A stretch of 64,000 bases of DNA from Minisyncoccota bacterium (GCA_041661795.1 JBAZTS010000003.1:3939-67938); one strand, 5' to 3'. Shown: positions 11,308 to 64,000, numbered from the stretch's first letter. Made by a program: numbers and translations. The notes: generated from the sequence alone by a model not told the origin.

Positions 11308-11349
11308 TAAGCTAAATATACTACAAAAAGATCAAAATTTAAAAGGGAA

Positions 11350-12621: not shown

Positions 12622-12630
12622 AATAAAAAT

Positions 12631-13929: not shown

Positions 13930-13952
13930 GTTTTTTATTAATCAGTTTAAGT

Positions 13953-20182: not shown

Positions 20183-20229
20183 CAGAGCAATAATACACGA
20201 TTTTTTTGTAATAGTCAATTACTGCCTTT

Positions 20230-20320
20230 CAGAAAAGATTTTGGGACGCGGGTATTTTTCTACTAAAAAATCCCTCTAGTTCAGCCCATCGGCTTCCGCA
20301 TGGTCCCAAAACCTTTTCTG
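20230..20320 (-). promoter_or_regulatory. Imperfect 18-bp inverted repeat with 55-nt spacer in the rpsO 5' leader / xerC divergent region
   Basis: CAGAAAAGATTTTGGGAC (20230-20247) pairs with GTCCCAAAACCTTTTCTG (20303-20320), one mismatch. Confidence 0.4.
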
Positions 20321-20374
20321 AAAATAATAACCAAAACTGTTTTCTAGTGTCGCAAAATAATATATACTAACGTC

Positions 20375-21286
20375 ATGACTGAAATTCAAAAATACGAAAA
20401 AGATTATTTAGATTATCTGGAAATAGAAAAAAACAGGTCGCCAAAAACCATAGAAAACTACAGGCGCTATCTTGATGAGTTTATAAAAGATGAAAAACTG
20501 AAATATTTAAAAGATTTAACCGTAGAAAGCGTCAAAAACTTTCGGCTCTTTTTGTCCAGAAAAGAAAGCGGACAAGATGGGTTTATTAAAAAAAATACCC
20601 AAAGCTATTATGTTATAGCTATTAGAAATTTTCTTAAGTATTTGGCCAGAAACAAAATAAAAACCGAAATATTATCCGAACAAATCGACCTTCCTAAAGT
20701 TTCCCAAAGACAGATAGAAATAATAGAATACGCCGATTTGGAAAGATTTTTAAAGGGTCCGGATGGAAATTCTCTAAAATCCCTTAGAGATAAAGCAATT
20801 TTGGAAACTCTTTTTTCTACCGGACTTCGTGTTTCAGAACTCTGTTCTCTTTCACGATATATTGATTTAAAAAGAGAGGAGATAACGGTTAGAGGAAAGG
20901 GGGATAAATTAAGAGTGGTTTTCCTTTCTCAAAGAGCCAAAGAGGCAATTGAAAAGTATTTAAACAAAAGAGGTGACGCCGACCAAGCGATGTTTGTTAG
21001 TTTAACTAAATCTAAAAATCCAAAGGTTATAGGAAAAATTTTACCAAGAACAGTTCAGCGTCTAGTAAAATTTTATGCCAAAAAAGCGGGAATCTTAGGA
21101 AAAGTAACACCCCATCAACTGCGTCATCAGTTTGCCACGGATCTTTTAATGAACGGGGCCGACATCCGCTCAGTGCAAGCGCTTTTGGGACACGCCAATA
21201 TTTCCACAACTCAAATTTACACTCACGTAACTAATAAAGAGTTAAAAGAAATCCACCACACCTTCCATGCCCGCAGGAGAAAATAA
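20375..21286 (+). CDS. xerC: Tyrosine recombinase XerC/XerD family
   Basis: N-terminal SAM-like core-binding domain. Catalytic region HQLRHQFATDLL ... LLGHANISTTQIYTHV. 303 aa. Confidence 0.8.
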   Translation: MTEIQKYEKDYLDYLEIEKNRSPKTIENYRRYLDEFIKDEKLKYLKDLTVESVKNFRLFLSRKESGQDGFIKKNTQSYYVIAIRNFLKYLARNKIKTEILSEQIDLPKVSQRQIEIIEYADLERFLKGPDGNSLKSLRDKAILETLFSTGLRVSELCSLSRYIDLKREEITVRGKGDKLRVVFLSQRAKEAIEKYLNKRGDADQAMFVSLTKSKNPKVIGKILPRTVQRLVKFYAKKAGILGKVTPHQLRHQFATDLLMNGADIRSVQALLGHANISTTQIYTHVTNKELKEIHHTFHARRRK

Positions 21287-21350
21287 TCGATAAAAATAAA
21301 TACGAATAGAAAAGATGGAGTTAAATAACAAATTTATATAGCAGTGTTTA

Positions 21351-21388
21351 CCTCTCTTATCGGCCGATCGTTCAATAAGAGAGATTAA
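21351..21388. repeat. 38-bp GC-cored hairpin repeat, copy 1
   Basis: CCTCTCTTATCGGCCGATCGTTCAATAAGAGAGATTAA: 9-bp stem CTCTCTTAT/ATAAGAGAG around the CGGCCGATCG loop. Repeated at 22053-22090. Confidence 0.75.
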
Positions 21389-21442
21389 AAACTAGAGTTA
21401 AAAACACAAGCCAAACATAAACCAAAAAGATAAGAATTAGAA

Positions 21443-22021
21443 CTAGGAGATTTGCTCCAAACTCCCGTGTTTGGTTATCTCAAATATTTCCACATAACTC
21501 AACATTTTTAGTCCCCTCAGGTCGTCCAGGAATTCTTCTGGTAATTTTGTTTTTCCTATCCAAACACTTTTTTGGATTAAATTAAAATCAAGATTTTTCA
21601 ATACTACCGACAACCATTTTCTTTTTTTCCTCTCTGCCTCCGGAACATCAAAAGCGACCACAGTTACTCTGTTATTTGGAGGTCCCTTTTTATATTTAGT
21701 TACGGGCAAAGAGATTTTTAATTTTATTCTTAATTTCCCCAACAAGATTTTACCCTTATTGGTTAATCTTAATTTGTCCCGATTTTTACTCTCTATCAAC
21801 CCGTCCCTTTTTAATCTATAAACCAAGTTATAAAATTTTTGCTTTTCTCCTTTTACAGCTTCCGCTTCGGCTTTTTTTGACAAAGTTTTATAATACGCTC
21901 TATCCATATCAGACAAAGAAGCTCCGTAACCAGCCTCAAGAAATGACTCTATTAAAAGTCCTACTGCCGTTACGCCGTTCTTTATTAACTCCAAAGCCTG
22001 TAACATTTTGTCCTCTTTCAT
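21443..22021 (-). CDS. wHTH regulator with C-terminal Cas2/VapD-like domain (PaaX-like architecture)
   Basis: N-terminal winged helix (YNLVYRLKRDGLIES). C-terminal VVAFDVPEAERKKRKWLSVVLKNLDFNLIQKSVWIG resembles the Cas2 core. No CRISPR array present. Confidence 0.4.
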   Translation of the reverse strand: MKEDKMLQALELIKNGVTAVGLLIESFLEAGYGASLSDMDRAYYKTLSKKAEAEAVKGEKQKFYNLVYRLKRDGLIESKNRDKLRLTNKGKILLGKLRIKLKISLPVTKYKKGPPNNRVTVVAFDVPEAERKKRKWLSVVLKNLDFNLIQKSVWIGKTKLPEEFLDDLRGLKMLSYVEIFEITKHGSLEQIS

Positions 22022-22052
22022 ATTTATTACTATTACATTTTTGTTACATTAT

Positions 22053-22090
22053 ACTCTTTTATCGGCCGATCGTCCAATAAGAGAGATTAA
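22053..22090. repeat. 38-bp GC-cored hairpin repeat, copy 2
   Basis: ACTCTTTTATCGGCCGATCGTCCAATAAGAGAGATTAA. Three mismatches to copy 1, same orientation. Confidence 0.75.
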
Positions 22091-22145
22091 GTTATAAGCA
22101 ATGGAATTGAAATTAAAGTCGGGTATTTTCCAAACAAAAATTTAG

Positions 22146-22226
22146 TGGGCAGGGAGGGACTTGAACCCTCAAACCTTGCGGCACTAGCTCCTAAAGCTAG
22201 CGTGTTTACCATTTCACCACCTGCCC
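22146..22226 (-). tRNA. tRNA-Leu (anticodon UAG)
   Basis: Cloverleaf folds on the minus strand: acceptor GGGCAGG/CCTGCCC, anticodon stem CTAGC/GCTAG with loop TTTAGGA, long variable arm, T-arm GAGGG-TTCAAGT-CCCTC. CCA is not encoded. Confidence 0.85.
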
Positions 22227-22335: not shown

Positions 22336-22490
22336 ATAGGGTAGAACTTATCAAACAACTTTCTCGCCTTTGGAAAAGGCGTGGGATTTACCCCCACACC
22401 AATTCTATTGGTGTGGGGGTTTATAGGGTGCTTTAAATGCAGTTAACAACAACTATCCCCGATTCTAATCGGGGAGGAAGGAAGTGGAAG

Positions 22491-23525
22491 ATGTCGACTT
22501 TGTTGTCCACACTGTTATTTGGTCTGGCTGGAGTGGCATTCCTGCTGTTTGTGGGAATCGCCATCTTCGTCAACGGCTGGAGAAAAGTTCCACCGTATCC
22601 GTTCATGGTCGCGAGGAAGAAGTTTAACCGCTTTATCGAGACGATGACGAACGATACAACAACAGGAGGATCAACTACGCCACGTTTCATTCTGAAGCCA
22701 GGAGGAGACCAGTTGTTTATCCTCTATCCGTGGTTCCAGAGTGGTGTGGTGGTGGATTGCTCTGACAAGAACTTCGACGGATCAGTGGACGGAGTCAGGG
22801 CTCTCAAGAAGACCGCAGAGGGAAAGTATGAGGTTGGATTCGATCTCTCCATTCCCTACGAGATCACGGTCTTCATCGACTCCAAGCGATTCGACAAGTT
22901 CGTCGAAGCATGTGGAGGCATCGAAGGGGACAATGTGACTGATGGACATTTTAAGAAGGTCGAGAAGATCCTCAACGGAATCATCACCGAACAGATGGTT
23001 TCCATCGCCGCGTCCATGAAGTCCACCACTCCAAAACCGGACGGGACAACAGACGAGGGAGTGATCTGGGAGGATTTCTACAAGCGCATCGCTGATATCG
23101 CCGACCAACTCATCCGACAGATCGCAGCCGCTGAGGCGGAAGGCGGCCTTGTGCACGACAGCGAAATCCAGAGCGTCCGGAGTGGCAAGGGGAAACTCCC
23201 GTTGAAGCGACTTGGCATCAAGATCAAGCGCTTCAATTTACAAGAACCCAAGCTTCCCAAGAGCATTTCAGACGCAATAGCAAAGAGGGAAGCCGAGGAG
23301 CGAGAGAAGGACGCGGAGAAGACAGAAATGGACGGAGTGATAGACCGAATCAACGACGCCAAGACAAAGACCGGTCTCTCGCCCGAACGCGCTATGGATC
23401 TTGTTCAGAGTGAGCGTGGCAAGGCACGGCGCATCGTTCACACCATCGATCAACAAGGAAAATCAAGTGGGAGTGGGTCAACTCCCGTCATTGTGATTCA
23501 AGAAACAACCGGAAAGGGGGAGTAA
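22491..23525 (+). CDS. SPFH/band-7 (flotillin-like) membrane protein
   Basis: Strong SD GGAGGAAGG before the ATG at 22491. N-terminal TM, SPFH-like core (ILKPGGDQLFILYPWFQSGVVVDCSD ... YEVGFDLSIPYEI), then a Glu/Ala-rich coiled-coil tail (AKREAEEREKDAEK). Confidence 0.5.
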   Translation: MSTLLSTLLFGLAGVAFLLFVGIAIFVNGWRKVPPYPFMVARKKFNRFIETMTNDTTTGGSTTPRFILKPGGDQLFILYPWFQSGVVVDCSDKNFDGSVDGVRALKKTAEGKYEVGFDLSIPYEITVFIDSKRFDKFVEACGGIEGDNVTDGHFKKVEKILNGIITEQMVSIAASMKSTTPKPDGTTDEGVIWEDFYKRIADIADQLIRQIAAAEAEGGLVHDSEIQSVRSGKGKLPLKRLGIKIKRFNLQEPKLPKSISDAIAKREAEEREKDAEKTEMDGVIDRINDAKTKTGLSPERAMDLVQSERGKARRIVHTIDQQGKSSGSGSTPVIVIQETTGKGE

Positions 23526-23526
23526 C

Positions 23527-24003
23527 ATGCCAAACAAGGACTCTCTCGAGAAAGCGTCTCCTCCTTGGACACCAAGAGCCAGAGGATGTTTTCTTTTCAT
23601 TTTCTTGTTTCTGACTGTCGTTGCCATCGCCGTCGTCTCATTCTGGCCCGAAGGCAACGGCGCCAAGACCGTCGAGGCGGTCAGGCAGATCCCAGTGGTC
23701 GCGGAGATCAGTCTGGGACAAACTAAACAAGTCGCAATCCAGCCTGGACACGTAGTAGCAGTTCGCTTCGTTCTCAACCCCGGCGAACCGCCCGGTGAGT
23801 GGGGTTACCGATGGCTTGAGAGAGAGGAAGGGTTGTGCGCAAGTGTGACCCTTTCCTCGGGTTTGGTGCCCCCATTTGTGGATTGCGCCAAGCCCATCAC
23901 CATCGTGCCCCTACCCAAAATCAGGACGACCACCCAAATGATCGTCCACAACACCAGTGAGAAAACAGCCAAACTGGAGTTCTTCCTGACAAGGCCGATT
24001 TAG
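23527..24003 (+). CDS. Small membrane-anchored protein, possible NfeD-like partner of the SPFH protein
   Basis: Single TM (CFLFIFLFLTVVAIAVVSFW) and a beta-rich soluble domain. Coupled to the upstream gene with a 1-bp gap. High GC. Confidence 0.35.
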   Translation: MPNKDSLEKASPPWTPRARGCFLFIFLFLTVVAIAVVSFWPEGNGAKTVEAVRQIPVVAEISLGQTKQVAIQPGHVVAVRFVLNPGEPPGEWGYRWLEREEGLCASVTLSSGLVPPFVDCAKPITIVPLPKIRTTTQMIVHNTSEKTAKLEFFLTRPI

Positions 24004-24030: not shown

Positions 24031-24068
24031 AAGACCCGACCGCTCACGCGATCGGGCTCTTTTGTTTT
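24031..24068 (+). terminator. Rho-independent terminator with GC-rich stem
   Basis: AAGACCCGACCGCTCACGCGATCGGGCTCTTTTGTTTT. Confidence 0.6.
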
Positions 24069-24084: not shown

Positions 24085-24483
24085 TTATAAGAGGCCTCCA
24101 GTTCCTTTATTAAGAGATCCTTCAACAAATTTAACAATTCCCCAAGAGAGCAAAGCAACAACTATACCGATAACGGCATAGAGAAGCATACTCTTGGCTT
24201 TTTTGACTTTGGTGTCATCTCCACTGCTGGTAATAAAGTAGAAAGCGGCGATAAGAATAAACAGGACAGCGACTATAAACAGAATTGTATAGACCCACTG
24301 AACTATTTTAGTAAATATCGCTACCGCTCCACTAACAGTTGTTGGAGCTCCCGGATTGTTCACTATATTACAGGGAAGTGCTCCTGGCTGTCCACACGGA
24401 ATCGGAGCCGCAGAAACTAAAGAAGTACTCAAAATCCCAAATAAAGCCAACAAAAGAAGAGAGGAAATTAATTTTTTTGACAT
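24085..24483 (-). CDS. TrbC/VirB2-type T4SS pilin, paralog 1
   Basis: Signal peptide, Cys-containing variable region, then conserved core VQWVYTILFIVAVLFILIAAFYF...KVKKAKSMLLYAVIGIVVAL (two TM helices separated by a short basic loop). Confidence 0.6.
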   Translation of the reverse strand: MSKKLISSLLLLALFGILSTSLVSAAPIPCGQPGALPCNIVNNPGAPTTVSGAVAIFTKIVQWVYTILFIVAVLFILIAAFYFITSSGDDTKVKKAKSMLLYAVIGIVVALLSWGIVKFVEGSLNKGTGGLL

Positions 24484-24544
24484 AATTTATTTTCAATTTT
24501 TACGACCTTTTTACTTTAAATAATTATAACAAATTATTTTAAAA

Positions 24545-24979
24545 TTAGTAGTTACCACCAGATCTCAAGAAGTTGTCTATAATAATAGGAATACCGGCTC
24601 CTAAAATTGCAACAACAATAGCAATAACGGCATATTTTAATTGAGCTCTGGCAATTTTGACTTTAGCGTCATTACTCCCCCCTTGAATAAAGTTATAAGC
24701 GGAAAGCAATATAAAGAGAACAGCAACAATAAAGAATATAGTGTAAATCCAACGAATAATTCCAAAAACAACTTGCTTAGCAGACCAACTTCCGCCCGGC
24801 TGAGCACTCACACTATTAAGACCGGTTATCGGACTTCGTAATTTAGGATCACTCCCAAACGGATTTATAATTTCCTCTCTAGTTGGTGGAGTAGCAACAG
24901 CCGCCAAAACGAAACTATTTATAAAGAAAACATTGATAAACAAAAAGCTTAAAGATACTAAAACAAATTTTTTAATCAT
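24545..24979 (-). CDS. TrbC/VirB2-type T4SS pilin, paralog 2
   Basis: Core IRWIYTIFFIVAVLFILLSAYNF...KVKIARAQLKYAVIAIVVAIL. C-terminal IDNFLRSGGN shared with paralog 3. Confidence 0.6.
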   Translation of the reverse strand: MIKKFVLVSLSFLFINVFFINSFVLAAVATPPTREEIINPFGSDPKLRSPITGLNSVSAQPGGSWSAKQVVFGIIRWIYTIFFIVAVLFILLSAYNFIQGGSNDAKVKIARAQLKYAVIAIVVAILGAGIPIIIDNFLRSGGNY

Positions 24980-24994
24980 TTTTTATTTTTAATT

Positions 24995-25336
24995 TTAATT
25001 TCCCGACCTTAAGAAATTGTCTATAATAGCAGCCACGCCCGTAGAAATTAGAGCTATTACTATAGCAATAACCGCATATTTTAAACGAGCCACTCCTTCT
25101 TTCACTTTCTCTGGCCTACCTTCAGACATCAAAAACGTATAAGCCCCAAGAAGTATGAAAAGAATGGCTAATATGAAAAATATTGTATATGCCCATTTAA
25201 CAGCTTTCAAAAGCAGATTCTGAACACCTTGAAAATCTGTGACTATCGGTTCCAAAACAGGTTGGGCCAATACAGGATAAGATAACAAGGAAAATAAACT
25301 GAGTATTATAATAATGCTAAAAAGTGTTTTTTTCAT
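24995..25336 (-). CDS. TrbC/VirB2-type T4SS pilin, paralog 3
   Basis: Core VKWAYTIFFILAILFILLGAYTF...KVKEGVARLKYAVIAIVIALI...IDNFLRSGN. Confidence 0.6.
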   Translation of the reverse strand: MKKTLFSIIIILSLFSLLSYPVLAQPVLEPIVTDFQGVQNLLLKAVKWAYTIFFILAILFILLGAYTFLMSEGRPEKVKEGVARLKYAVIAIVIALISTGVAAIIDNFLRSGN

Positions 25337-25340
25337 ATAT

Positions 25341-25724
25341 TTATGGATTTGCCGGCTGATTGACTCCCAAAAATTCTTTTAGTAATAACACCAAACTGCT
25401 TGCCACTAATATAACGGCAAATCCTATAACGGCATTATATATAATCTTTTTGCCCTTATCAAACTTGGCCTGATTTCCTCCGGCAGTCAACATATTAAAT
25501 CCGCCAAATAAAACCATAAGAGTAAGAATAGGAACTGAAATTATAATAAGCCAATTAGTGGCTTTAGTTATTAAATCGGAAAAACTTTCCGTACCTAATG
25601 GGTTTTTAAGTTTTATGGACGTTTTGGGTTGCGGATCTGTGGGTCCAACAGGATCGGCAAATACCAACTTTTGAATAGGAAACAAAAAAAGTGCTAAAAA
25701 GATAGAATAAAATAACTTCTTCAT
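25341..25724 (-). CDS. TrbC/VirB2-type T4SS pilin, paralog 4 (diverged)
   Basis: Signal peptide and the same two-TM architecture (WLIIISVPILTLMVLFGGFNML...KFDKGKKIIYNAVIGFAVIL). Confidence 0.5.
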   Translation of the reverse strand: MKKLFYSIFLALFLFPIQKLVFADPVGPTDPQPKTSIKLKNPLGTESFSDLITKATNWLIIISVPILTLMVLFGGFNMLTAGGNQAKFDKGKKIIYNAVIGFAVILVASSLVLLLKEFLGVNQPANP

Positions 25725-25755
25725 AATTAAATTATAACAACATTATTTTATAAAA

Positions 25756-26232
25756 CTATCCCTTTATCCCCAGGAGGGTTATAAGAGTGTCCACTATTAA
25801 CCAAGCGGCGAATGTAATCAATAGAGCAATAATTACTCCTTGAGCCATACTCTTTCCTTTGGAAAATTTCCCTTCGTTGCCTTGGGCGGTCATCATCATA
25901 AATCCTCCCACCATTATCCAAATAACTCCCACCGGAACAGCCACACTAAAAACAGCAAACCAGATTATCTTATCAACCATCACCATAAAATGCTTAAAGG
26001 TGCATGGAACTAAAGTTGTTTTGGTTGTTGGGTCTTCGTTTCCACAAGGAACTAATGGAATTTTACCGTTCCTTGATTCGCATTTTATTCCGTCGGGTTC
26101 TTCGCTGTTACATGGAACAACAATAATTGGCGGAGAGTTTGGCTCCTGCGGTTGAGCAGAAACAAAACTCGTTGAAAAAATATTAAACAAGACCAACCCG
26201 AACAAAGTTAAATAAAATATTTTTTTTGGCAT
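25756..26232 (-). CDS. TrbC/VirB2-type T4SS pilin, paralog 5 (Cys-rich N-terminal region)
   Basis: Signal peptide, six Cys in the variable region, and a two-TM core (IIWFAVFSVAVPVGVIWIMVGGFMMM...KFSKGKSMAQGVIIALLITFAAWLIV). Confidence 0.5.
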   Translation of the reverse strand: MPKKIFYLTLFGLVLFNIFSTSFVSAQPQEPNSPPIIVVPCNSEEPDGIKCESRNGKIPLVPCGNEDPTTKTTLVPCTFKHFMVMVDKIIWFAVFSVAVPVGVIWIMVGGFMMMTAQGNEGKFSKGKSMAQGVIIALLITFAAWLIVDTLITLLGIKG

Positions 26233-26236: not shown

Positions 26237-27544
26237 TTAGAGACTATTTATTTCTTCTTGAGCAAACCTTAATCCCTGTTGTTTTGATATCTTACCAGAA
26301 AGAATGTCTGAAATCATATTTCCTAAAACTTTTTTAGCTCCCATAAAATCACGTCTCTGCCAAGTTTTGGCAATTAACGCTCCTCTTAAAAACGGCCCGT
26401 TTTCTCCGGAAATATTATCTTCTATCAATGATTTTAGAGCAGGCAACTTTCCCGACAAACTCATATATGTCGTAAGCACCGATTCTGTTGTGGTTAGGTG
26501 TTTAACAAAATCCCAAGACGCATAAACTTTAAGAGGAACAAGCTGAGACGAAACAGCAACGCCCCAATAATCCGCCACATTTGATTTTTGAGAGGCGCTG
26601 GCTCCCTTTATCTGAGGAAGATCTATAACTTCAAAATTAAGAAATGGGTTTTTGGCTTTAATTTTTGCAATATCGCTCTGATATCCAATTATCATTCCCA
26701 ACTTTCCCAGAGCAAATTCGCTTATATAATCCCCCAATCCTTCGTTCCAGGTGTAATAAGAATTAATCGGATCGGAAAATTGCATAAAGAAATCAAGTCC
26801 GTTTTGAGCATTAGCGTCAAAATAAACTCCCGACTGATTTTGATTTACAAAAGTTGAACCGGACTGAAACATAAGAGCGGTTAAAACATCGGTAGCCACA
26901 GATATGTTTTTATATGCCCCCAAAGCCGTTGCCGGAAGATTTATTTTTTTGTTGTCGCCAATTTCTCTTATTTTTATAATTAGCTCCGTAAATTCATCCC
27001 AAGTGGTTGGGAGGGATATAATTGATTTTGAATTAAAAATATCTTTGTTATAAAAAAGAGCCAAGGAATCCATATTCAAAGGCAGAGCTAAAACATTTCC
27101 GTTTAAAACAAAATCCTTGGAAACAACGCTGGGAAATAACTTGGAAACAGTTTGGGCTGAAATTATAGTAGATGGAGCGGCCGACATTTTACCCCAGTGC
27201 TCATAAGGCCAGGCGGCAGGAATCATAAAAATATCAGGGCCTCTTTTTTCGGCTAAGGCGTTGAAAAGCTCTTTTTGATAGCTTTCAAGAGAGTCAAATT
27301 CTTTATAAACTACCTCGACATTTTCGTGGATTGCTTTATATGAACTAAGGGCTTGTTCAAAATAACTTGTCTGATCACCAACGCCCCAAAAATCTATTTT
27401 GACCGAATCAGTTGGATAGTTTGGATCGCCCCCGGAGCCGCCACTGTTAAAGATAGGAATAACTCCTAAAACTCCCAAGATAATAATTATTACCAATAGC
27501 AAAACAGCTCCAATAATAATGATCTGGTTTTTTGTAAAAGACAT
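26237..27544 (-). CDS. ABC transporter extracellular solute-binding protein (family 1, sugar-type), membrane anchored
   Basis: N-terminal TM anchor and a MalE-like SBP fold. Directly upstream of the pilin array on the same strand. Confidence 0.6.
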   Translation of the reverse strand: MSFTKNQIIIIGAVLLLVIIIILGVLGVIPIFNSGGSGGDPNYPTDSVKIDFWGVGDQTSYFEQALSSYKAIHENVEVVYKEFDSLESYQKELFNALAEKRGPDIFMIPAAWPYEHWGKMSAAPSTIISAQTVSKLFPSVVSKDFVLNGNVLALPLNMDSLALFYNKDIFNSKSIISLPTTWDEFTELIIKIREIGDNKKINLPATALGAYKNISVATDVLTALMFQSGSTFVNQNQSGVYFDANAQNGLDFFMQFSDPINSYYTWNEGLGDYISEFALGKLGMIIGYQSDIAKIKAKNPFLNFEVIDLPQIKGASASQKSNVADYWGVAVSSQLVPLKVYASWDFVKHLTTTESVLTTYMSLSGKLPALKSLIEDNISGENGPFLRGALIAKTWQRRDFMGAKKVLGNMISDILSGKISKQQGLRFAQEEINSL

Positions 27545-27562: not shown

Positions 27563-30022
27563 TTAAAAACAAATTATGGCTACAATTTTGTCGTTATCTT
27601 TTAAACGCATTACCCTAACTCCACTGGTGGCCCTAGCGCTTTGTCTAACATCAGAAATCTTTGTTTTAATAATTTGTCCTTTGGCGGAGAGAACAATTAC
27701 TTCTTCTTCCGCGCTTATTACTTTACAAGCTACCACATTTCCTGTTTTTGGATTAATCTTGGCGGTTTTTATTCCCTGCCCTCCCCTAGATTGAACTTTG
27801 TATTCTTTTAGAGATGTTTGCTTGGCAAAACCATGTTCCATAATAATCAATAATTTTTCACCTTTATTTACAATATCAATTCCAATAACAGAGTCAGCGC
27901 TTTTTAGTTTGATTCCCCTAATACCAGCAGCGGTTCTTCCCATCGGTCTTAGTTGAGATTCTTTAAATCTGATCGCCTGCCCTTTAGCGGTCACTAAAAT
28001 TATTTCATCTTTTCCAAAGGACGGTTTTACCCATTTAAGAAAGTCCCCTTTTTTCAAGTTAATGGCTATAATTCCACTTCTCCTGACGTTAGAAAAATCT
28101 TCTATGGGAACTTTCTTAATTATCCCTTTAGAAGTAGCCATAACTAAATATTTAATATCTTCTGATTTATCGCTGTAAGTAACAATAGCCCCAATTCCTT
28201 CCGAAGGAGGAATATCCAAAAAATTATGGATAATTTTCCCTTTGGCGGTTCTTGAACCAACGGGAATTTCATAGACCTTGGTCTGATAAACTTTTCCGCT
28301 GTCGGTGAAAAAAAGAATATTGTCGTGCGTGTTAGCATATAAAAGATTGGTAAGAAAATCATCCTCTCCAACCTCCGAACCGATAAGCCCCTTTCCTCCC
28401 CTGCCCTGAACTTTAAACGTGTCGGGGTTGATTCTTTTTATATATCCACTAGAAGACAACGTAATTATCGCCTCTTCTTGAGCTATTAAATCTTCGTCCT
28501 TAAATTCGGTTAGTCCCGATTCAATGATTTGAGTTCTTCGTGGGTCGCCATATTTTTCTTTCATCTCTAAAAGCTCTCGCTCTATAACTTCAAGTATCTT
28601 TTTAGGCGAAGACAAAATGGTTTCTAGGTCTTTTATTATCTTTTTCTTTTCTTTGAGCTCGTCTTCAATTTTTTGTCTTTCCAACGAAGCCAAGGTTTGT
28701 AATTTCATTTCTAAAATGGCGGTAGTTTGAACATCGGTAAATTTAAATTTGCTCATTAAATTTTTATGAGCTTCTTCTTTATTTTTAGATTTTTTAATTG
28801 TAGAAATAACCGCATCAATATGGTCTAGGGCCTTGGAAAGACCATCTAAAATATGAGCCCGATCTTTGGCTTTGGTTAAATCAAACTGGGTTCTTCTTTT
28901 TATAACAATTTGTCTGTGTAGAAGATATTGCTCTAATACCTCTTTTAGGGAAAGTAGTTGCGGTTGAATTCCATTAACCAGTCCTATCATATTTAAATGA
29001 AAGTCCTTTTGCAGTTCGGTGTTTTTAAAAAGCTGGTTTAAAAGTTTTTGGGGAGCAACGTCATTTTTTAACTCAACCACAATAGAAAGTCCGTCCTTAT
29101 CGCTTTCATCTCTTAAATCTTTTATTCCTTCTATTTTTTTGTCTCCTACTAATTGAGCAATTTTTTGTATAAGTTCAGATTTGTTTACCTGATAAGGAAT
29201 TTCTGAAATGGAAATATTATATTGACCGGCTTTTCTTTCAACGATTTCGGCTTTAGCTCTACAAGTAATAGACCCTTGGCCGGTTGAATAAATTTCGGCC
29301 ATGTTCTTGGCCCCATGGATTATTCCACCCGTAGGAAAATCTGGTCCCTTGACATGTTTTACCAACTGAACGGTTGAGATTGAGGGATCTTTTATGATAG
29401 CCAGTGTGGCGTCAATAATTTCCCCCAAATTATGTGGAAAAATATTTGTCGCCATACCAACGGCTATACCCATAGAACCATAAATCAGAAGATGAGGAAT
29501 TTTTGAAGGAAGGACCGTGGGCTCGTTTCTGGAAGAATCATAGTTTGGAATAAAATCAACCGTGTCTTTTTCTATATCAATTAAAAGTTCTTCGGCAATT
29601 TTTGAGAGACGACACTCGGTGTATCTCATAGCGGCCGCATTATCTCCATCAACGCTTCCCCAGTTGCCCTGACCATCAATCAACGGATAACGCAAGGAAA
29701 AACCCTGAGCCATTCTTACCATAGCATCATAAACCGAAGAATCACCATGTGGATGGTATCTTCCTAAAACCTCTCCAACAACGTTAGCGGATTTTCTGTA
29801 TTTGGCCGAATGAGTCAGTCCAGAGTCCCACATGGCCCAAAGGATTCTCCTATGAACCGGTTTTAATCCATCTCTAACATCGGGAAGGGCGCGGGTGACA
29901 ATAACCGACATAGCATAATCCAAATAAGAGGTTTCTAATTCTTTGGTTATTTCGGTCTGAACAACTCCTTGTGTCACCTCAATATTTTGATTTTTTTCTT
30001 TCTCCTGTTTGTCTTTTGCCAT
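27563..30022 (-). CDS. gyrA: DNA gyrase subunit A
   Basis: Active-site region AMRYTE(C)RL, GyrA box, [20 protein letters not shown]-terminal beta-pinwheel repeats. 819 aa. Confidence 0.95.
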
Positions 30023-56495: not shown

Positions 56496-56576
56496 TTTTG
56501 AATATAGTGTTGTATAATAAACAAGCGATGCCGAAGGGGAATTACCAGTCCCTCAATTTGCTTTAGAAAACACAAA

Positions 56577-57407
56577 ATGCAAACTTTAAACTTTAAAAAT
56601 CCGTTTGTTATTTTTGGAATTATTGTGATTATCTTTGTTGGTTATTGGATACTCGGAGGATTAACTCCAGATAAAATTATAAATCTTTCTAAAGATAGTG
56701 CTGACGTAGTTAAAAGTAATAATTCTCAACAATTGGGAGATTTGAGCTGGGTAGAAAATCCAAACGATGTCGCAAAAGATTTGTCTCAGACGTCGCTGGA
56801 AAATTTAACCAGCAAACTATCAGAAAACATATCTTCGGAATTTCTGTCTCAAGTAGATTTTTCTCAAGCATCATCTTCTCCTAAGAACTTAATAGATCAA
56901 TTAAACGGAGCAGATTTGAATGATCCTAAAACACTTTCTTTTTTAAAAAATAACCCACTTGGGTTTTTATATAGCATACCCGACAAGAGTATTAAAATTT
57001 CTTCTGATAACTCATCTCAAAAAGCAGTTGAATACATTTTTAGTTATACAAGCATCATGTCTGAAGTTGCTGGTCAAAAATCACAAGACCCGCAAGACCT
57101 TCTGGAAGAAATTACCTCTGTTATTGAAAGCCAGGACCAAGGAGAAATGTCTCAAATGGCGTTTAATTTAAATAAGGGATTTGATAGAATAATACAATTA
57201 GAAGTTCCTTCGGGTTTAGTTGAATTACATAAACAAAACTTAATGATATTCAAAAATTCAGCGATTGTTTTTGGGGCGTTGGCTTATAAGGATAACGACC
57301 CGTTAAAGGCGTATCTTGCGGCCATGAATGGTTCTGACCTTATTATAAAAGAAACCGACAAAGCCGATTTATTATTTAAGGAGGCATCTAAAAAATATTC
57401 CTTATAA
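56577..57407 (+). CDS. Hypothetical membrane-anchored protein
   Basis: N-terminal TM (FVIFGIIVIIFVGYWILG) and a hydrophilic Ser/Asp-rich domain. Upstream of T4SS-like genes. Confidence 0.45.
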   Translation: MQTLNFKNPFVIFGIIVIIFVGYWILGGLTPDKIINLSKDSADVVKSNNSQQLGDLSWVENPNDVAKDLSQTSLENLTSKLSENISSEFLSQVDFSQASSSPKNLIDQLNGADLNDPKTLSFLKNNPLGFLYSIPDKSIKISSDNSSQKAVEYIFSYTSIMSEVAGQKSQDPQDLLEEITSVIESQDQGEMSQMAFNLNKGFDRIIQLEVPSGLVELHKQNLMIFKNSAIVFGALAYKDNDPLKAYLAAMNGSDLIIKETDKADLLFKEASKKYSL

Positions 57408-57413
57408 AAATTT

Positions 57414-59003
57414 ATGGTAAGCGTTTTTAAAAAAATATTGATAGTGGTAGTGCTTTTTTCTTTTGTTTTAAATGCCTCTGGGGTTGCTTCGTTTTTTACG
57501 GTCAAAAAAGCGCAAGCGGCTTGGCCTGTCAGCGAACTGCTCTCTCTGCCGACTTTTATTCAGATAATGAAAGACCTTGCGCAATGGATTAAAACTGAAT
57601 TGCTAAAAGCCCTAAGAGACGCCGTTGTTAAATCTATTATAGCCAAAATACAAAATGATATAATCCAACAAGTAACTGGTGGTAATGGAGGGGATAGCAG
57701 TTTTGTCTCTGATTGGGGCTCTTACCTAAAGGATGATATTATTAATTCTACTTTTAGTGAGTTTAACGATATTTTAGCCAATGATACTGGAATTGATTTG
57801 TGCGTTCCTTTTGCTCAGCAGTTCTTGTCGTTGCGGTTAAATGCTTTAACTGCCAGTTATGGAGTTGGTCAGGACTATCTTGGTCTTCCGGTTAGATGTA
57901 CTTTTGACCAATTTAAATACAATTTGGAATATACTTATGATTTTATAACAAAAGGAGGATGGGCTTCTTATGACGCCCTCTTCTCTCCAGATATTAATCC
58001 CTATTGGATATCTTGGCAGGTTGAAGATAAATTCGCTCAACGTGTTGCTGAACAAAAAGATGCAAAAAAATCTGAGGCCGAAAGCTCGGGAGGATTTTTA
58101 GGAACAAAAGAGTGTAAGATGTATGGTCCTAAAACAGAACAACAAATAAGAGATGAGTGTACCGATGACGTTATAAATGGAACCGCACAAGGAGAAGCCG
58201 GAGAAGCTTTTAAAAGTTGTTTGGGGTATCTTACTCAACAAAACTGTAAAGAGTGGGGGATTCTTACTCCGGGACAAGCAGTTTCGGAAGCTGTAACAAA
58301 AGCGATTGGTTCTGATTTTGAATATGCAGAAAACGTTCAAAGTGCCATATCGGCTATAATAAATGTTTTAGTGTCAAAAGCTCTAAGTGAAGGACTTCAA
58401 AGTGCTTCAGGAGGAACAACCGTTAATAGAGAACCCGGAGATTTAGATGGTACAGGATTTGAGGATTATGAAGGCGAAACATACAGGCAAGACCTGGAAG
58501 ATGCTAACAGGGATTATGATGACATAATTTATTATATTACTAACGACCTAGGGCCGATTGTTTCTACGGTTTTAGCTTTTGCGCACGACATGGCCGGAGA
58601 CGGAACGGATTTGGAAAGTTGTCCGAATAGTAGAATAAGTGTTGATGATGGAAGCGGAACAAAAAAAATATATACCGCGGCAGAAATTATTGATTTGCTA
58701 AATGGATTTGATTTGAATAATTCCAGCTCAGCTACTTCGCGAGCCCTGACTCAAGCCAGAGCCAATCAAATTGAAGTTTCGAATTTATTAGACCAAGACA
58801 ATCCGAGTAGTAATGACGTTAATAAGGTGGTTAATAAGTTGTCTAATTTTGTCAGGACATATCAGCCATTTTACATTGACGTTCAGCTGGTTAATAGTGG
58901 TGGTGACGGAGAATTAGTAACTCTGGTTTGGAATATTTACAACGCTCTAAGGGCGTTTAACAACGAAGACGGTAATGATAAGAATAATTTTGTCTGTAGA
59001 TAA
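57414..59003 (+). CDS. Hypothetical secreted/membrane-anchored protein (Cys-containing, acidic)
   Basis: N-terminal signal/anchor (ILIVVVLFSFVLNASGVASF) and 529 aa with several Cys pairs. Co-directional with the VirB6-like gene, with a 3-bp gap. Confidence 0.45.
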   Translation: MVSVFKKILIVVVLFSFVLNASGVASFFTVKKAQAAWPVSELLSLPTFIQIMKDLAQWIKTELLKALRDAVVKSIIAKIQNDIIQQVTGGNGGDSSFVSDWGSYLKDDIINSTFSEFNDILANDTGIDLCVPFAQQFLSLRLNALTASYGVGQDYLGLPVRCTFDQFKYNLEYTYDFITKGGWASYDALFSPDINPYWISWQVEDKFAQRVAEQKDAKKSEAESSGGFLGTKECKMYGPKTEQQIRDECTDDVINGTAQGEAGEAFKSCLGYLTQQNCKEWGILTPGQAVSEAVTKAIGSDFEYAENVQSAISAIINVLVSKALSEGLQSASGGTTVNREPGDLDGTGFEDYEGETYRQDLEDANRDYDDIIYYITNDLGPIVSTVLAFAHDMAGDGTDLESCPNSRISVDDGSGTKKIYTAAEIIDLLNGFDLNNSSSATSRALTQARANQIEVSNLLDQDNPSSNDVNKVVNKLSNFVRTYQPFYIDVQLVNSGGDGELVTLVWNIYNALRAFNNEDGNDKNNFVCR

Positions 59004-59006
59004 AAA

Positions 59007-61355
59007 ATGAATTATTTTAGAGGAAATAAAAAGACTTTAATAAAATCATTATTGATGTTGGTTTTAGTTGTAACTCTGTTTGGGTTTTTTAATCAAGAAG
59101 CTCAAGCGGGTATTTTAAGTAGTTTTATAGATTTTTCGGGGTCTGTTTTGATAAAAATTATATTGTTTGTTTTTGGTTTAATTCAATGGTTGGTAGGAGT
59201 TGTATTCATTAAATTTGGGGCCATGCTTGTCAACTTTGCAATGTACATTAATAAAGGATTGTTAACAGATTTAAACGATACTCACTTTGTCATAATTGGA
59301 TGGAAAGTTTTTAGAGATTTGGCAAATTTAGGGTTTACTTTGGGAATAATAATAATTGCCGTTTCCATTATTCTTAGATTTAAAAGTTATGGCTCTCAAA
59401 AAGTTCTTACAAATCTTATAGTGGCGGCTCTTTTAATAAATTTTAGCTTAGTTATTGCCGGTTCAATAATAAAAACATCAGATGTTTTTTCGAACTTCTT
59501 CTTAAAATATATTGATGCTTCTGGAACTAGTAACTGGTCAGCTAGAATTACCGGTATGTTTAGAATGCAGGGAGTTGTTATTTCTAAAGATCCGTCAGCG
59601 CGACCAGTTTGCGATGCTGAAAATGATGAAAAAATTAAAGAAGCTTGTGAGCAACAAAAGAAAGATGGGACAATAACAGATGTTGATGCCTGTATTAAAA
59701 ATGTTACGGATAGTATGTGTAAATTTGACTCTGTTATACCAGATAATACGGATTTAGCAAACATCAAAGAAGATAGCGCGCTTTCGGCTAGTTTTTATAC
59801 TTTGGCCGGTCTTTTAATATCTATAGTGGTAGGTGTTTTTATCGGATTAACGCTTTTGGCGTTAGCTTTTATGCTTCTTTTAAGATATTTTAATCTCGCT
59901 TTTCTTTTAATGGTATCGCCTCTTGTTTGGGTTCTTTGGGTATTTCCTTATACCAAACAATATTGGAAAAAATGGTGGGATAGTTTTATAAAATGGGTTT
60001 TATTTGCTCCGATAACGCTGTTCTTTGTATATTTAACATTAATTTTCCTTTCTAAAAGTAGCGGTGGTTTTGGAGGGCAGGCGAATGAAGTGGCTACTGG
60101 TTCTGGAACAAGTATAGCCGGTATTGGTTTTGCAGATATGATGATTCCCTTTATGGCTGGGGCATTGCTTTTAGCTGGATTAAAAATCTCTCAAACGATG
60201 GGATTTGCTGGAGCCGGATTTGTTTTGAAGCAGTCCTCAAAATTGCAAAATTGGGCAAAAACAAAAGCTCGAAGAGGAGCGGCAAGAGCTGGAAGAAGGG
60301 CTTTAGGAGAGAGGACCAGAAATGTAGCAAATAAAATTGGTTCTAGTAAATGGGCTAATAGATTGACTTTAGGAGGAGCAAGTAAGCTCGCTGAAGTAAC
60401 AACCAAAGGCAGGGCTACCTTAGAAAAAAAATCTCAAGAATTTATTGATGAAAAAGTTAAACATTATGAGACCATAAAAGATTCCAAACAATTAGCCGCT
60501 CTTCTCCCAACAATGAACAAAGAAGAAAGAATGGCGGCGTTAGAGGTTTTGTCTAAAAGAGGAGACATGAAAGAAACTCAAGGATTACTTGGAATGGATC
60601 AAGTAATAGAATCGGTTGAAACCGCTAATACAATTGGTCGTGGTAAGTCGGCGTCTGATACTCAGAAATCTTTTGGAATGAGTCTTAATATGATGAAAGC
60701 TATGAAAAGTAGCGATGGAAAGCACGAGGGAAAAACATATGAGGAACACGCTAAGGAATTTTACGGAAATTTTTCATCTGATGATTGGAAAAAATCGGGG
60801 GCTGCAATAGGAAATCATATTTTTAAACCAGTGGACCCAACGACTAAAGAGGTGGTAGATATGCCAGGAATGACAAAAGAACAATCAAATAAGTTTAGGG
60901 AGCAGTATGTGGCTGGTTTGACCGGAGGTTTTGGAGAAGGGATATCTGCTATCGCCCCCAAACTCAAAGGAGAAAGCACGAAAAAAATGCTTGAGGATGT
61001 TGTAGCATCTGTTGCTGGAGATGCGGAAGTAGTAAGTATCAAAGATGCTATAGAAAAAGCGAGTAAAGATATGGATGGTGATAAAGTTATTGAACTTGTG
61101 CGTCAAAGGGATGAGGAGGGAGTGAAGGAAATAAAAATAACTGCCAGTCGTGATGATATATTAAGAGCTATAAGAGAAGGTGATTTGGATAAAGCTGTTA
61201 ATCTTATGAAAAATTCTAAAAATCCCAAACTAATAACTATCGCCTCTAAGATTAACAAGAGTATGGGAGCTGCTATACTGTCTGCTAGTGGAGAAGAAGG
61301 CAAATCAGAAGAGAAGAAACCAGAGGAGAAGAAACCAGAGGAACCTAAGAAATAA
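59007..61355 (+). CDS. VirB6/TrbL-like polytopic T4SS membrane protein with Lys/Glu-rich C-terminal extension
   Basis: Signal/TM, about 8 TM helices with a Cys-containing extracytoplasmic loop, then an about 380-aa hydrophilic tail. Synteny VirB6-like, then VirB3-like, then VirB4 as in Gram-positive conjugation loci. Confidence 0.45.
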   Translation: MNYFRGNKKTLIKSLLMLVLVVTLFGFFNQEAQAGILSSFIDFSGSVLIKIILFVFGLIQWLVGVVFIKFGAMLVNFAMYINKGLLTDLNDTHFVIIGWKVFRDLANLGFTLGIIIIAVSIILRFKSYGSQKVLTNLIVAALLINFSLVIAGSIIKTSDVFSNFFLKYIDASGTSNWSARITGMFRMQGVVISKDPSARPVCDAENDEKIKEACEQQKKDGTITDVDACIKNVTDSMCKFDSVIPDNTDLANIKEDSALSASFYTLAGLLISIVVGVFIGLTLLALAFMLLLRYFNLAFLLMVSPLVWVLWVFPYTKQYWKKWWDSFIKWVLFAPITLFFVYLTLIFLSKSSGGFGGQANEVATGSGTSIAGIGFADMMIPFMAGALLLAGLKISQTMGFAGAGFVLKQSSKLQNWAKTKARRGAARAGRRALGERTRNVANKIGSSKWANRLTLGGASKLAEVTTKGRATLEKKSQEFIDEKVKHYETIKDSKQLAALLPTMNKEERMAALEVLSKRGDMKETQGLLGMDQVIESVETANTIGRGKSASDTQKSFGMSLNMMKAMKSSDGKHEGKTYEEHAKEFYGNFSSDDWKKSGAAIGNHIFKPVDPTTKEVVDMPGMTKEQSNKFREQYVAGLTGGFGEGISAIAPKLKGESTKKMLEDVVASVAGDAEVVSIKDAIEKASKDMDGDKVIELVRQRDEEGVKEIKITASRDDILRAIREGDLDKAVNLMKNSKNPKLITIASKINKSMGAAILSASGEEGKSEEKKPEEKKPEEPKK

Positions 61356-61356
61356 T

Positions 61357-62379: not shown

Positions 62380-62389
62380 CTATTTATTT

Positions 62390-62497
62390 AAGCACGAAGC
62401 ACTAAATCCGAAATTCGAAACAATATTTAAATTCTAATGTTAAAAATTTTTAAACTCAAACACCGTTTCGGATTTTGATATTAGAATTTCGAATTTT
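62390..62497. repeat. Intergenic repeat block: AAGCACGAAGCAC + AAATCCGAAATTCGAAA, then inverted TTTCGGATTTTGATATTAGAATTTCGAATTT
   Basis: Member of a family also found at 55863-55882, 63068-63106 and (inverted) 63501-63532. Confidence 0.7.
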
Positions 62498-62504
62498 ACT
62501 AATT

Positions 62505-63056
62505 ATGGCTCAATTTGAAGTACCACAATTTATAGATATGGAGCCAAAAATTGTTGGCCCGTTAACGTTAAAACAGTTTGCTTTTATAGCGGCTCCTTTT
62601 TTGATTTCATTCTTTCTATTTTTTGTATTAAACAGATTTGTCTGGTTTATTATGGCTTTTATTTTGGCGGTTTTTGCCATTTTATTTGCCTTTGTAAAAG
62701 TTAGCGGACGGCCTTTTTGGAAAATCTCTCTTTACGCTTTAACGTTTTTCTGGCAACCAAAACTTCTTTTATGGAAGCGGGCTGTTATACAAGAAAGAAT
62801 AGAAATTCCTGCTCCGGTTGCCGTCAAAGCTGTGGCCGAAAAAAGAAGCGCCCTAAAATCAGTTTCATTGGGAGTATCAGGAAAGATTGCGGGAGTGTCA
62901 AAGCTTTGGCAGGATTTAACCACAACCAAAAATCCGATTCCAAAAAGAGAAAAATCTGTTCCTAAAAAAACAATCTCGGATATAAAAGAACAATACATGG
63001 TTTTTAAGAAGATGAGTGGCGAGAGAGAAGTAGCTAAACGAATAGATTACAGGTAG
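62505..63056 (+). CDS. PrgI/VirB3-like small T4SS membrane protein
   Basis: N-terminus FEVPQFIDMEPKIVGPLTLKQFAFIAAPFLISFFLFFVL, then a second TM: VirB3/PrgI-like topology. Start moved to the MAQFEV Met. Confidence 0.45.
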   Translation: MAQFEVPQFIDMEPKIVGPLTLKQFAFIAAPFLISFFLFFVLNRFVWFIMAFILAVFAILFAFVKVSGRPFWKISLYALTFFWQPKLLLWKRAVIQERIEIPAPVAVKAVAEKRSALKSVSLGVSGKIAGVSKLWQDLTTTKNPIPKREKSVPKKTISDIKEQYMVFKKMSGEREVAKRIDYR

Positions 63057-63067
63057 TCTATTCGTTT

Positions 63068-63106: not shown

Positions 63107-63107
63107 A

Positions 63108-63553: not shown

Positions 63554-64000
63554 ATGAGTGATAAGGTTGTTGAAAAAATTATTTCTCCTCCAAATTCTAC
63601 TCAGAGATTTGTTGATGTAGAGGAGATAAAAAATGGAGTGGTTGTTTTAAAAGGAGGCGCTTTACGAGCCGTAATTATGGTTTCAGGGGTAAATTTTGAA
63701 CTTAAATCCGAAGATGAACAAGATATTATCACATCAACCTACCAAGATTTTTTAAATTCTCTGGATTTTTCTCTCCAAATAGTCATCCATTCAAGAAAGC
63801 TTAATATAGAAAATTACCTCAAAAAGATGGAGGAGATAAGAAATAAAGAATCAAGCGAACTTTTAAGAAATCAGATAGACGAATATGTGTCTTTTATAAG
63901 AAGTTTTGTTAAAGAGAACGAGATTATGACTAAAAACTTTTTTGTCGTAGTTCCTTATGAGGCGGCCGGAGCTGGGGAAATAAAAAAGGGATTCTTTGGA
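63554..64000 (+). CDS. VirB4/TrbE/CagE-like T4SS ATPase, N-terminal domain (3'-partial, runs off the window)
   Basis: Reading by eye, MSDKVVEKIISPPNSTQRFVDVEEIKNGVVVLKGGALRAVIMVSGVNFELKSEDEQDIITSTYQDFLNSLDFSLQIVIHSRKLNIENYLKKM resembles conjugative VirB4/PrgJ-type N-terminal domains (not checked against any alignment). No stop before the window end. Confidence 0.5.
   Translation, partial: MSDKVVEKIISPPNSTQRFVDVEEIKNGVVVLKGGALRAVIMVSGVNFELKSEDEQDIITSTYQDFLNSLDFSLQIVIHSRKLNIENYLKKMEEIRNKESSELLRNQIDEYVSFIRSFVKENEIMTKNFFVVVPYEAAGAGEIKKGFFG

Follow-up and report, generated by a model that had tools for sequence, protein, structure and literature searches.

Tandem VirB2-like pilin-family genes in three position-conserved classes behind gyrA and a solute-binding protein gene in a Paceibacteria-type bacterium

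Introduction

What might a host-dependent bacterium build from five small, divergent genes that stand in tandem behind gyrA and the gene of a sugar-binding-type protein, far from any secretion ATPase? This question is raised by a stretch of 64,000 nucleotides from a member of the Minisyncoccota (GCA_041661795.1, JBAZTS010000003.1:3939-67938; hereafter the window), in which the five genes, here named P1 to P5, occupy positions 24,085 to 26,232. An earlier note on this DNA, made from the sequence alone, had proposed a tandem array of five paralogous TrbC/VirB2-type pilin genes of a type IV secretion system (T4SS), encoding 113–158 aa each, whose exposed parts had diversified. We find that the array is a further case of the already published tandem VirB2-like pilin arrays of Patescibacteria, not a new kind of system. 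New here are the block formed by gyrA, the solute-binding protein (SBP) gene and the array, the order of three pilin classes within the array, and the match to a pilin-like family of Mycoplasma integrative and conjugative elements (ICEs).

Arrays of this kind were surveyed by Quinonero-Coronel et al. (2025, Microb Genom, PMC12102498), who searched 3,035 Patescibacteria genomes with the families PF18895 and PF04956 and reported 441 arrays of 2–11 pilin genes in 383 assemblies, with a mean within-array identity of 25% and a maximum of 54%. The arrays were most abundant in Microgenomatia and Saccharimonadia, the T4SS genes lay near dnaA, dnaN, rnpA and ksgA, and relaxases were almost absent (PMC12102498). 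In Candidatus Southlakia epibionticum, a pilin series stands inside the T4SS cluster (Wang et al. 2023, Cell, PMC10633639), and SEML1_0014, 0017, 0018 and 0019 were each scored essential (PMC10633639, Table S1). This essentiality is the only experimental evidence for the pilin family. Published work on related systems speaks against conjugation (PMC12102498, PMC10633639).

Results

Family assignment

The list of open reading frames (ORFs) of the window contained five co-directional minus-strand ORFs with exactly the limits given in the earlier note (Table 1). All five products matched Pfam PF18895 (T4SS_pilin) with E values from 8e-12 to 2e-4, and three of them, P4 (45.4 bits), P1 (44.6 bits) and P3 (37.0 bits), exceeded the gathering score of 26.6 bits. 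A hidden Markov model (HMM) built from the five paralogs, run against the 553 six-frame ORFs of the window, picked out the five themselves and no other (next best E = 0.037), so that no sixth pilin copy was found by this model within the 64 kb. P1 and P4 had already been named 'pilin' by NCBI in the source metagenome-assembled genome (MAG; Candidatus Paceibacterota). Identical copies of at least P1, P2, P4 and P5 are recorded there on a 110,622-bp contig. The family is very large, with 91,671 representatives at 50% clustering with E ≤ 1e-3. By these profile comparisons, P1–P5 are paralogous T4SS pilin-family genes with a similarity far beyond chance.

P1 also passed the NCBIfam model NF045849 (pilin-like conjugal transfer) with 43.7 bits against a cut-off of 40 bits (44.8 bits for the mature form), while P3 (30.0 bits), P4 (20.7), P2 (17.7) and P5 (11.6) stayed under it. 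Since NF045849 is an equivalog model made for Mycoplasma ICEs, the pass of P1 denotes homology, not the same function. When the search was extended to an alignment of 95 relatives, PF18895 was matched by 95/95, NF045849 by 90/95 (E ≤ 1e-3) and the TrbC/VirB2 family PF04956 by 30/95 (E ≤ 0.01, best 5e-9).

Table 1. Array, adjoining genes, origin marker and T4SS-type genes of the window, in window coordinates
Feature	Position	Strand	Size or type	Remarks
Hairpin	24034..24057	-	terminator-like, G+C-rich, with T-run	28 nt past the P1 stop codon
P1	24085..24483	-	132 aa	class-3 pilin-family gene; last gene of the array; 2 Cys in variable segment
P2	24545..24979	-	144 aa	class-3 pilin-family gene; 40-aa Pro-rich variable segment
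P3	24995..25336	-	113 aa	class-3 pilin-family gene (expanded class); shortest variable segment, 13 aa
P4	25341..25724	-	127 aa	class-2 pilin-family gene; NPLG motif ahead of helix 1
P5	25756..26232	-	158 aa	class-1 pilin-family gene; first after the SBP gene; 54-aa Pro/Cys-rich stem with 4 Cys
SBP gene	26237..27544	-	435 aa; MalE-like family-1 solute-binding protein	N-terminal membrane anchor; PF13416 85 bits, PF01547 69 bits
gyrA	27563..30022	-		PF00521 541 bits; early in the conserved MBL-gyrA-SBP-pilins block
dnaA	41176..42549	-		dnaN, rnpA, yidC, jag around; marks the replication origin between array and T4SS core
Two genes	56577..59003	+	276 aa, membrane-anchored; 529 aa, secreted	no Pfam match; between ksgA and the VirB6-like gene
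VirB6/TrbL-like gene	59007..61355	+	782 aa; polytopic membrane protein	precomputed PF19590 TrbL_3 match for the identical gene
PrgI family (VirB3-like)	62475..63056	+		PF12666 34.4 bits, cut-off 27; gene caller's start 62538
TraC-like (TrsD / VirB4 N-terminal domain-like), 5' part	63554..64000	+	222 aa (full protein)	cut by the window end; PF11130 E 9e-6 on L081

Protein architecture

Each of the five proteins began with a basic and then hydrophobic signal-like N-terminus, followed by an AXA-type -3/-1 site at residues 23–26 as judged by hydropathy and the -3/-1 rule (for P5, predicted cleavage VSA/Q at residue 26). Behind this site lay a Pro-rich variable segment of 13–54 aa and then, in all five, a pair of hydrophobic helices with a short Lys-rich loop between them. 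An AlphaFold2 (AF2) model of mature P1, computed with the 95 relatives, placed the helices at residues 25–60 and 65–104 with a core pLDDT of 83–91, while the first 21 residues were disordered. The common architecture of signal-like start, variable segment, two helices and basic loop, as the earlier note had described it, was thus recovered by hydropathy, by the -3/-1 rule and, for the two helices of P1, by AF2. A Cys-rich stem had been assigned to some of the proteins; Cys residues were present in the variable segment of P1 (two) and P5 (four) only.

The cores of P1–P3 were 43–53% identical (P2 to P3, 53%; P2 to P1, 49%) and P4 was 35% identical to P5, whereas P4 and P5 reached only 15–27% against the P1–P3 core. 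A Trp and a few other residues were invariant in all five. The proposed core motif (W-x-YTIFFI..., KVK, LKYAVIAIV) therefore describes P1–P3, but does not extend to P4 and P5. At the nucleotide level the cores shared 41–59% identity. The longest exact common run was 12 nt, and the codons differed at about half of the positions with identical residues. No gene-conversion tracts were detected by a repeat search and a codon comparison of the five paralogs. This nucleotide comparison shows the duplications to be old, on the measure of sequence divergence.

Among the best 150 matches, most proteins held 2–17 matched pilin units. In two fused multi-pilin proteins, P0121 (606 aa, seven matched stretches) and P0122 (552 aa, six), the units are joined by short linkers behind a single N-terminal signal peptide; with this arrangement of unit, linker and unit, only a topology with both the N- and the C-terminus outside fits. 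Natural 'poly-pilins' of this kind (P0121, P0122, P0127, P0134 and others) may be processed or may act as concatemers. Fused multi-pilin proteins were not mentioned in the literature examined, including the main text of PMC12102498.

Three position-conserved pilin classes

Comparison across 11 three-gene related arrays revealed a positional pattern. Pilins standing at the same position in different loci scored 74.7, 65.1 and 66.0 bits against each other (positions 1, 2 and 3), compared with 33–48 bits off the diagonal. P5 found its best match at position 1 in 11/11 arrays and P4 at position 2, likewise in 11/11, and P1, P2 and P3 formed one clade within position 3. Each class also bore a feature of its own: the motif LVPCG...C..C in class 1, usually accompanied by a C-terminal W...C that P5 does not have, the motif NPLG in class 2 and a GD..K.K loop in class 3.

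The order of P5-type, P4-type, n copies of the P3/P2-type and P1-type was kept in the related loci L082 and L083, with n being two in the window, two in L083 and four in L082; in L084, as an exception, the P4-type gene stands last. Class 3 as a whole counts three copies here, three in L083, five in L082 and one in many other arrays. P5 is 61% identical to the first gene of L082, and P1 has its orthologue in the terminal gene of related arrays (identity 56% in L082, 47% in L083, 48% in L084). As a side observation, a small DUF4258/DUF2283 gene pair is inserted within the pilin array of L084 (9037-9483).

These comparisons of sequence and position showed that the array consists of three ancient classes in a fixed order, the third of which has been expanded to three copies here. 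Judged in the same way, it is only in the class of P3, P2 and P1 that copy numbers change and N-termini diverge within the lineage, and only its middle copies resemble a variable set. The diversification of the exposed part, as proposed in the earlier note, thus holds for the copy number and the N-termini of this class, but not for the differences between P5, P4 and P1–P3, which are old, class-defining and conserved across genomes. Given their age, their order and their specific motifs, the classes would most likely have different structural roles in one heteromeric filament (major versus minor, base, tip) rather than serve as interchangeable variants.

In Moranbacteria-type and some other loci (L021, L022, L025–L027, L030, L032, L037–L039) the first, and sometimes the last, array gene encodes 330–730 aa. 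The pilin match of these proteins lies near the C-terminal end (Pfam check for L026 and L032), with a large N-terminal extracellular domain ahead of it, which makes them candidate adhesin-like or tip subunits.

The gyrA-SBP-array block

The array lies directly downstream of the SBP gene and gyrA on the same strand, as the earlier note had stated: P5 starts 4 nt after the end of the SBP gene, and gyrA is located 18 nt further upstream. The nearest solved relatives of the SBP are sugar-binding proteins, and no ABC permease or ATPase gene adjoins it. We assembled an SBP-anchored set with one genome per species, comprising 41 Patescibacteria loci with 25–41% identity to the SBP. A pilin array followed directly after the SBP gene in 35 of these 41 loci, with up to nine pilin ORFs (fewer at a contig end). 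Five of the other six were broken by a contig end, and the sixth, L002, continued with type IV pilus genes: at 11335-15435, an SBP orthologue (40% identity, after gyrA) is followed by genes that encode, by sequence, a PilB-like ATPase, a PilC-like protein and prepilin-type pilins. Usually an MBL-fold gene and gyrA stood ahead of the SBP gene; the pair of SBP gene and array was kept without gyrA upstream in L016, L022, L026 and L040.

For the converse test, we retrieved five arrays with the pilin as the only anchor. All four Paceibacteria-type arrays began with MBL-gyrA-SBP (4/4), and the Saccharimonadales array was found next to PrgI and without an SBP gene. Downstream of the four arrays, the same genes as in the window recurred: a small ORF with an SPFH gene (3/4), a PaaX-like gene (2/4), Xer, S15, NYN and PNPase. 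The whole thus forms a long syntenic block, S1-MBL-gyrA-SBP-pilins-SPFH-xer-S15-NYN-pnp. Because this block is syntenic over such a length, the adjacency of SBP gene and array may in part reflect inherited gene order, and we treat a functional coupling of SBP and pilins, which the gene order suggests, as a lead and not as a result. No VirB4 or VirB6 gene was found within 10 kb of the array, either here or in the 41 related loci. The linkage of SBP and array was not mentioned in the literature examined, and the main text of PMC12102498 contains no mention of the gyrA-SBP-array block or of positional classes.

Transcription unit

The array is flanked by the SBP gene on one side and a convergent SPFH gene pair on the other. 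The intergenic gaps P1–P2, P2–P3, P3–P4 and P4–P5 measure 61, 15, 4 and 31 nt. The hairpin behind P1 has a stem of 10 pairs, seven of them G-C, followed by CTTTGTTTTT. It probably marks the end of a transcription unit; the total of terminator-like sites in the region was not above the shuffle expectation, and the hairpin is a consensus match only. A promoter scan gave 23 sites versus 18 expected and supported no internal promoter, and no clear Shine-Dalgarno sequence was seen upstream of the five pilin starts. From the layout, with the promoter scan at background, we infer that gyrA, the SBP gene and P5 to P1 form one transcription unit.

T4SS core genes in the same genome

The readable part of the genome comprises the 64-kb window and about 9.5 kb past its end, the latter on the contig of locus L081, which is identical to the window from 53108. 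The window represents core chromosome at the origin, with dnaA, dnaN, rnpA, yidC and jag at 40–44 kb as well as gyrA, recA, ftsK, pnp, polA and ftsH; the FtsK (107-1996) is of the chromosomal type with a gamma domain. Some 15 kb separate the pilin array from dnaA. On the far side of oriC, on the plus strand, ksgA begins at 55.7 kb and T4SS-type genes follow from about 56.6 kb. The genes for the 276-aa and 529-aa proteins probably belong to this cluster, given their position and co-orientation. The 782-aa protein had no match in our own Pfam scans, and its assignment as VirB6/TrbL-like is weak. VirB4 (583 aa) follows about 670 nt past the window end on L081 (P-loop_TraG, 98 bits; AAA_10; DUF87). 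At the genome level, PrgI, TrbL_3, TraC-like and VirB4 proteins are therefore all encoded together with the pilins, though not next to the array. Neither a relaxase nor a coupling protein was found among the scanned ORFs of the window.

A few genes after VirB4, about 3.7 kb past the window end (L081, 14611-15576), a 321-aa protein carries an N-terminal PF18895 domain (26.4 bits), followed by a Cys-rich C-terminal domain of about 200 aa without a Pfam match. Over about 300 aa, this fusion shares homology with the long pilin that opens two SBP-linked arrays, L018 (E 8e-18) and L033 (E 3e-20). Since its homologues stand first in SBP-linked arrays, its presence in the VirB4 cluster ties the array module to the T4SS core. 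A SxHxxGxAxD-like motif in its C-terminus was noticed by eye; an assignment as M15/LAS-type peptidase had no Pfam support and is not claimed.

The T4SS cluster (window 55662-64000; L081 10447-16798) also holds a 340–363-aa protein with a Lys/Glu-rich middle. Wedged among the core genes are two small genes that bear no relation to them, a 23S rRNA intervening-sequence protein gene (63108-63473) and, just past the window, the gene of a PDDEXK_3 protein.

Neighbouring genes

Two plus-strand genes at 22437-24003, encoding an SPFH/Band_7 protein (362 aa) and a 158-aa protein, differ in composition from their surroundings: their G+C content is 52–55% and their G+C content at third codon positions (GC3) 62–63%, whereas the overall G+C content is about 35% and the GC3 of the neighbouring gyrA and SBP genes about 32%. 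An interpretation as a foreign island by the tRNA-Leu gene was rejected; the SPFH gene and the small ORF stand at the same convergent position in L082–L084. The pair may represent a replacement by a copy from a G+C-richer relative.

Beyond it, at 19916-22226, the window contains rpsO, a XerC/D-type recombinase gene (20375-21286), the gene of a PaaX/Cas2-like domain protein (21443-22021) and tRNA-Leu(tag) (22145-22226). The Xer recombinase occupies the same place in 4/4 pilin-anchored relatives and the PaaX-like gene in 2/4 (L082, L084). Because these positions are conserved in relatives, the segment is not the scar of a mobile element. LAGLIDADG inteins were seen in gyrA of L083 (710-5191) and in the Xer recombinase of L084 (13128-15296).

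Discussion

Comparison with published systems

The array shares with those of the survey (PMC12102498) the tandem co-directional PF18895 genes, the low identity (15–53% in the core here), and the chromosomal location near dnaA, dnaN, rnpA and ksgA, with no relaxase among the scanned ORFs of the window. It differs in that the survey centres on genes up to 20 coding sequences (CDS) from virB4, whereas the present array, from a Paceibacterota MAG, stands about 30 CDS off on the other side of oriC. The six tandem genes SEML1_0014-0019 of S. epibionticum ML1 likewise encode sequence-divergent but structurally alike PF18895 pilins of a chromosomal T4SS of monoderm type that lies beside the replication origin. 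That array belongs to the Saccharimonadia and is embedded in the T4SS cluster beside PrgI and VirB6, with Hsp20 after it and no SBP gene, while the one described here, of a Paceibacteria-type class, is detached and accompanied by gyrA and the SBP gene.

With the canonical TrbC/VirB2 pilins (PF04956; Agrobacterium VirB2, RP4 TrbC) the five proteins have in common the signal peptide, two hydrophobic helices, a short basic cytoplasmic loop and a small mature size, together with a weak but real profile similarity (P4 and 30 of the 95 relatives). In contrast, the signal peptides are short here (23–26 aa), the organism is a monoderm without an outer-membrane core complex, and a single gene beside virB3-virB4 is replaced by five to nine paralogs away from virB4. 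The Mbov_0395/MMCAP2_0565 family of Mycoplasma ICEs (NF045849) resembles the present pilins in its monoderm or wall-less hosts and its MPF-FATA-type T4SS, a type in which the patescibacterial VirB4 clade is nested. Its members are single genes on mobile, conjugating ICEs, whereas arrays are found here and four of the five paralogs score under the cut-off. This relationship, read from profiles, suggests that the pilins may have arrived together with a monoderm T4SS of the MPF-FATA type, in which case no co-option from diderm systems would be required. The match of 90 of the 95 patescibacterial pilins to NF045849 also fits poorly with the statement that monoderm T4SS classes have no VirB2 homologues. 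The VirB2 arrays of Bartonella and Anaplasma phagocytophilum (cited in PMC12102498) are alike in that T4SS pilin genes with varying exposed parts stand in tandem in bacteria that depend on a host. They belong, however, to diderm animal pathogens, for which antigenic variation was proposed, and the present paralogs are ancient and ordered, with class motifs and no recombination tracts.

The preferred explanation and its weak points

We consider it likely, with good confidence, that the five genes encode VirB2-like pilin subunits (PF18895) of the chromosomal T4SS typical of Patescibacteria. In the mechanism that we propose, Sec would insert the pre-pilins and signal peptidase I would cleave them, giving a membrane pool of pilins whose two termini face outwards and whose basic loop lies inside the cell. 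A VirB4-driven machine would then extract and polymerise them into a pilus, or into a short conduit spanning the cell wall, that exposes the N-terminal segments. The filament would be heteromeric, built from the three classes. By analogy to S. epibionticum, which needs such pilins to grow on its host, the structure would act in contact with, or exchange with, a host cell rather than in conjugation.

Several observations weigh against this explanation. P2 (22.7 bits, E 1e-4) and P5 (21.7 bits, E 2e-4) score under the PF18895 cut-off; we count them as members of the family because of their significant E values, their paralogy and their orthology with other members. The cut-off of canonical TrbC/VirB2 (PF04956, 27.9 bits) was reached by none of the five, with P4 coming closest (20.1 bits), followed by P3 (13.0) and P5 (10.8), and with no match for P1 and P2, which indicates, at the profile level, a distant homology and not membership. 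The Pfam and HMM check named in the earlier note thus returned PF18895 for all five, NF045849 for P1 and sub-threshold scores for PF04956; neither a lack of T4SS pilin hits combined with a lack of predicted cleavage sites, nor a similarity of merely generic hydrophobicity, which the note had named as contrary outcomes, was what we found. A PDB sequence-profile search with the five paralogs yielded only noise from G-protein-coupled receptors and ABC transporters and no solved VirB2, TraA or TrbC. A Foldseek comparison of the AF2 model with the PDB gave nothing at E ≤ 1e-3, and its 46 weak hits included no T4SS pilin, helical hairpins being poorly discriminating. The predicted signal-peptide cleavage rests on the simple -3/-1 rule, and the idea of different roles is based on conservation patterns alone. 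The array is separated from virB4 by about 30 CDS (30–40 kb), so that its link to the machine exists at the genome level only, and no pilus of the PF18895 family has yet been seen in any Patescibacterium (2025 review, PMC12857230).

Alternative explanations

That we are dealing with generic small membrane proteins, which share a pattern of two transmembrane segments and owe their Pfam name to context, has hardly any probability left. The fold and PDB searches did return non-specific helical hits only, and many weak Pfam matches to unrelated membrane families betray a hydrophobic bias. Yet such proteins would not be expected to match PF18895 with E values down to 8e-12, nor their relatives to match TrbC/VirB2 (30/95) and the Mycoplasma ICE pilin-like family (90/95). 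Relatives also stand beside PrgI in Saccharimonadia T4SS clusters, and a pilin-domain gene stands in the VirB4 cluster of this very genome; family and context evidence thus largely refute this interpretation. A more specific proposal is that the genes form a variation cassette of interchangeable major pilins, alternatively or jointly expressed, whose exposed N-termini match host strains or evade recognition. This idea, proposed in the 2025 survey (PMC12102498) and for the VirB2 arrays of Bartonella and Anaplasma, agrees with the strong differences between the variable segments (13–54 aa, and in composition) and with the varying copy number of the third class between related genomes. An antigenic cassette should consist of recent, recombining, lineage-specific paralogs; found here, however, were positional orthologues in at least 11 genomes, with a motif for each class and main differences that are ancient and position-conserved. 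Neither recent gene conversion nor common cassettes were apparent (nucleotide identity 41–59%, runs ≤12 nt), and at least four of the six S. epibionticum pilins are individually essential, which is unexpected of redundant variants. The positional pattern and this single-pilin essentiality favour distinct roles over variants, and we regard a variation cassette as improbable.

The SBP linkage allows two further interpretations. In one, the five proteins would not primarily be T4SS pilus subunits but part of a membrane device coupled to the SBP, either a platform or pore for uptake or sensing of host sugars or an anchor that presents the SBP as a glycan-binding adhesin. The adjacency in 35/41 SBP-chosen loci (with five of the other six cut by contig ends) and in 4/4 Paceibacteria-type pilin-chosen arrays would fit, as would its persistence without gyrA upstream (L016, L022, L026, L040), the lack of a permease or ATPase gene by the SBP gene, and the lack of virB4 and virB6 within 10 kb of these arrays. 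But arrays of the same family lie within the T4SS cluster and without an SBP gene in Saccharimonadia (PMC10633639 and the pilin-anchored locus). Moreover, the block is syntenic, so that the adjacency is possibly in part inherited order, and in L002 the SBP gene precedes type IV pilus genes. We know of no precedent of an SBP working with VirB2-like proteins, and consider such a device very improbable. In the other interpretation, the T4SS pilins are retained: in Paceibacteria-type Patescibacteria, the SBP and the three ordered classes would function as one unit, separate from the VirB4 core, with a heteromeric filament or conduit in which the SBP acts as host-glycan adhesin or receptor, or as the capture step for import of host sugar. 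This is conceivable, although we think it unlikely.

Conclusions

Returning to the reading of P1–P5 as VirB2-like T4SS pilins, their significance lies in the organisms that carry them. Patescibacteria account for much of the bacterial diversity not yet in culture and are host-dependent, and in the one species tested their unusual monoderm T4SS, with its VirB2-like pilins, is essential. The three ordered classes predict a heteromeric structure and non-redundant pilin roles. The homology to the pilin-like proteins of Mycoplasma ICEs bears on the origin of the pilins, that is, on whether they arrived with a monoderm T4SS or by co-option from diderm systems. In Paceibacteria-type genomes, the linkage to the SBP and the separation from the ATPase core offer a starting point, open to testing, for finding out what the structure contacts or carries. 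Should the proposed unit of SBP and pilins prove true, it would be the first concrete genomic handle on the proposed uptake of host molecules by patescibacterial T4SSs.

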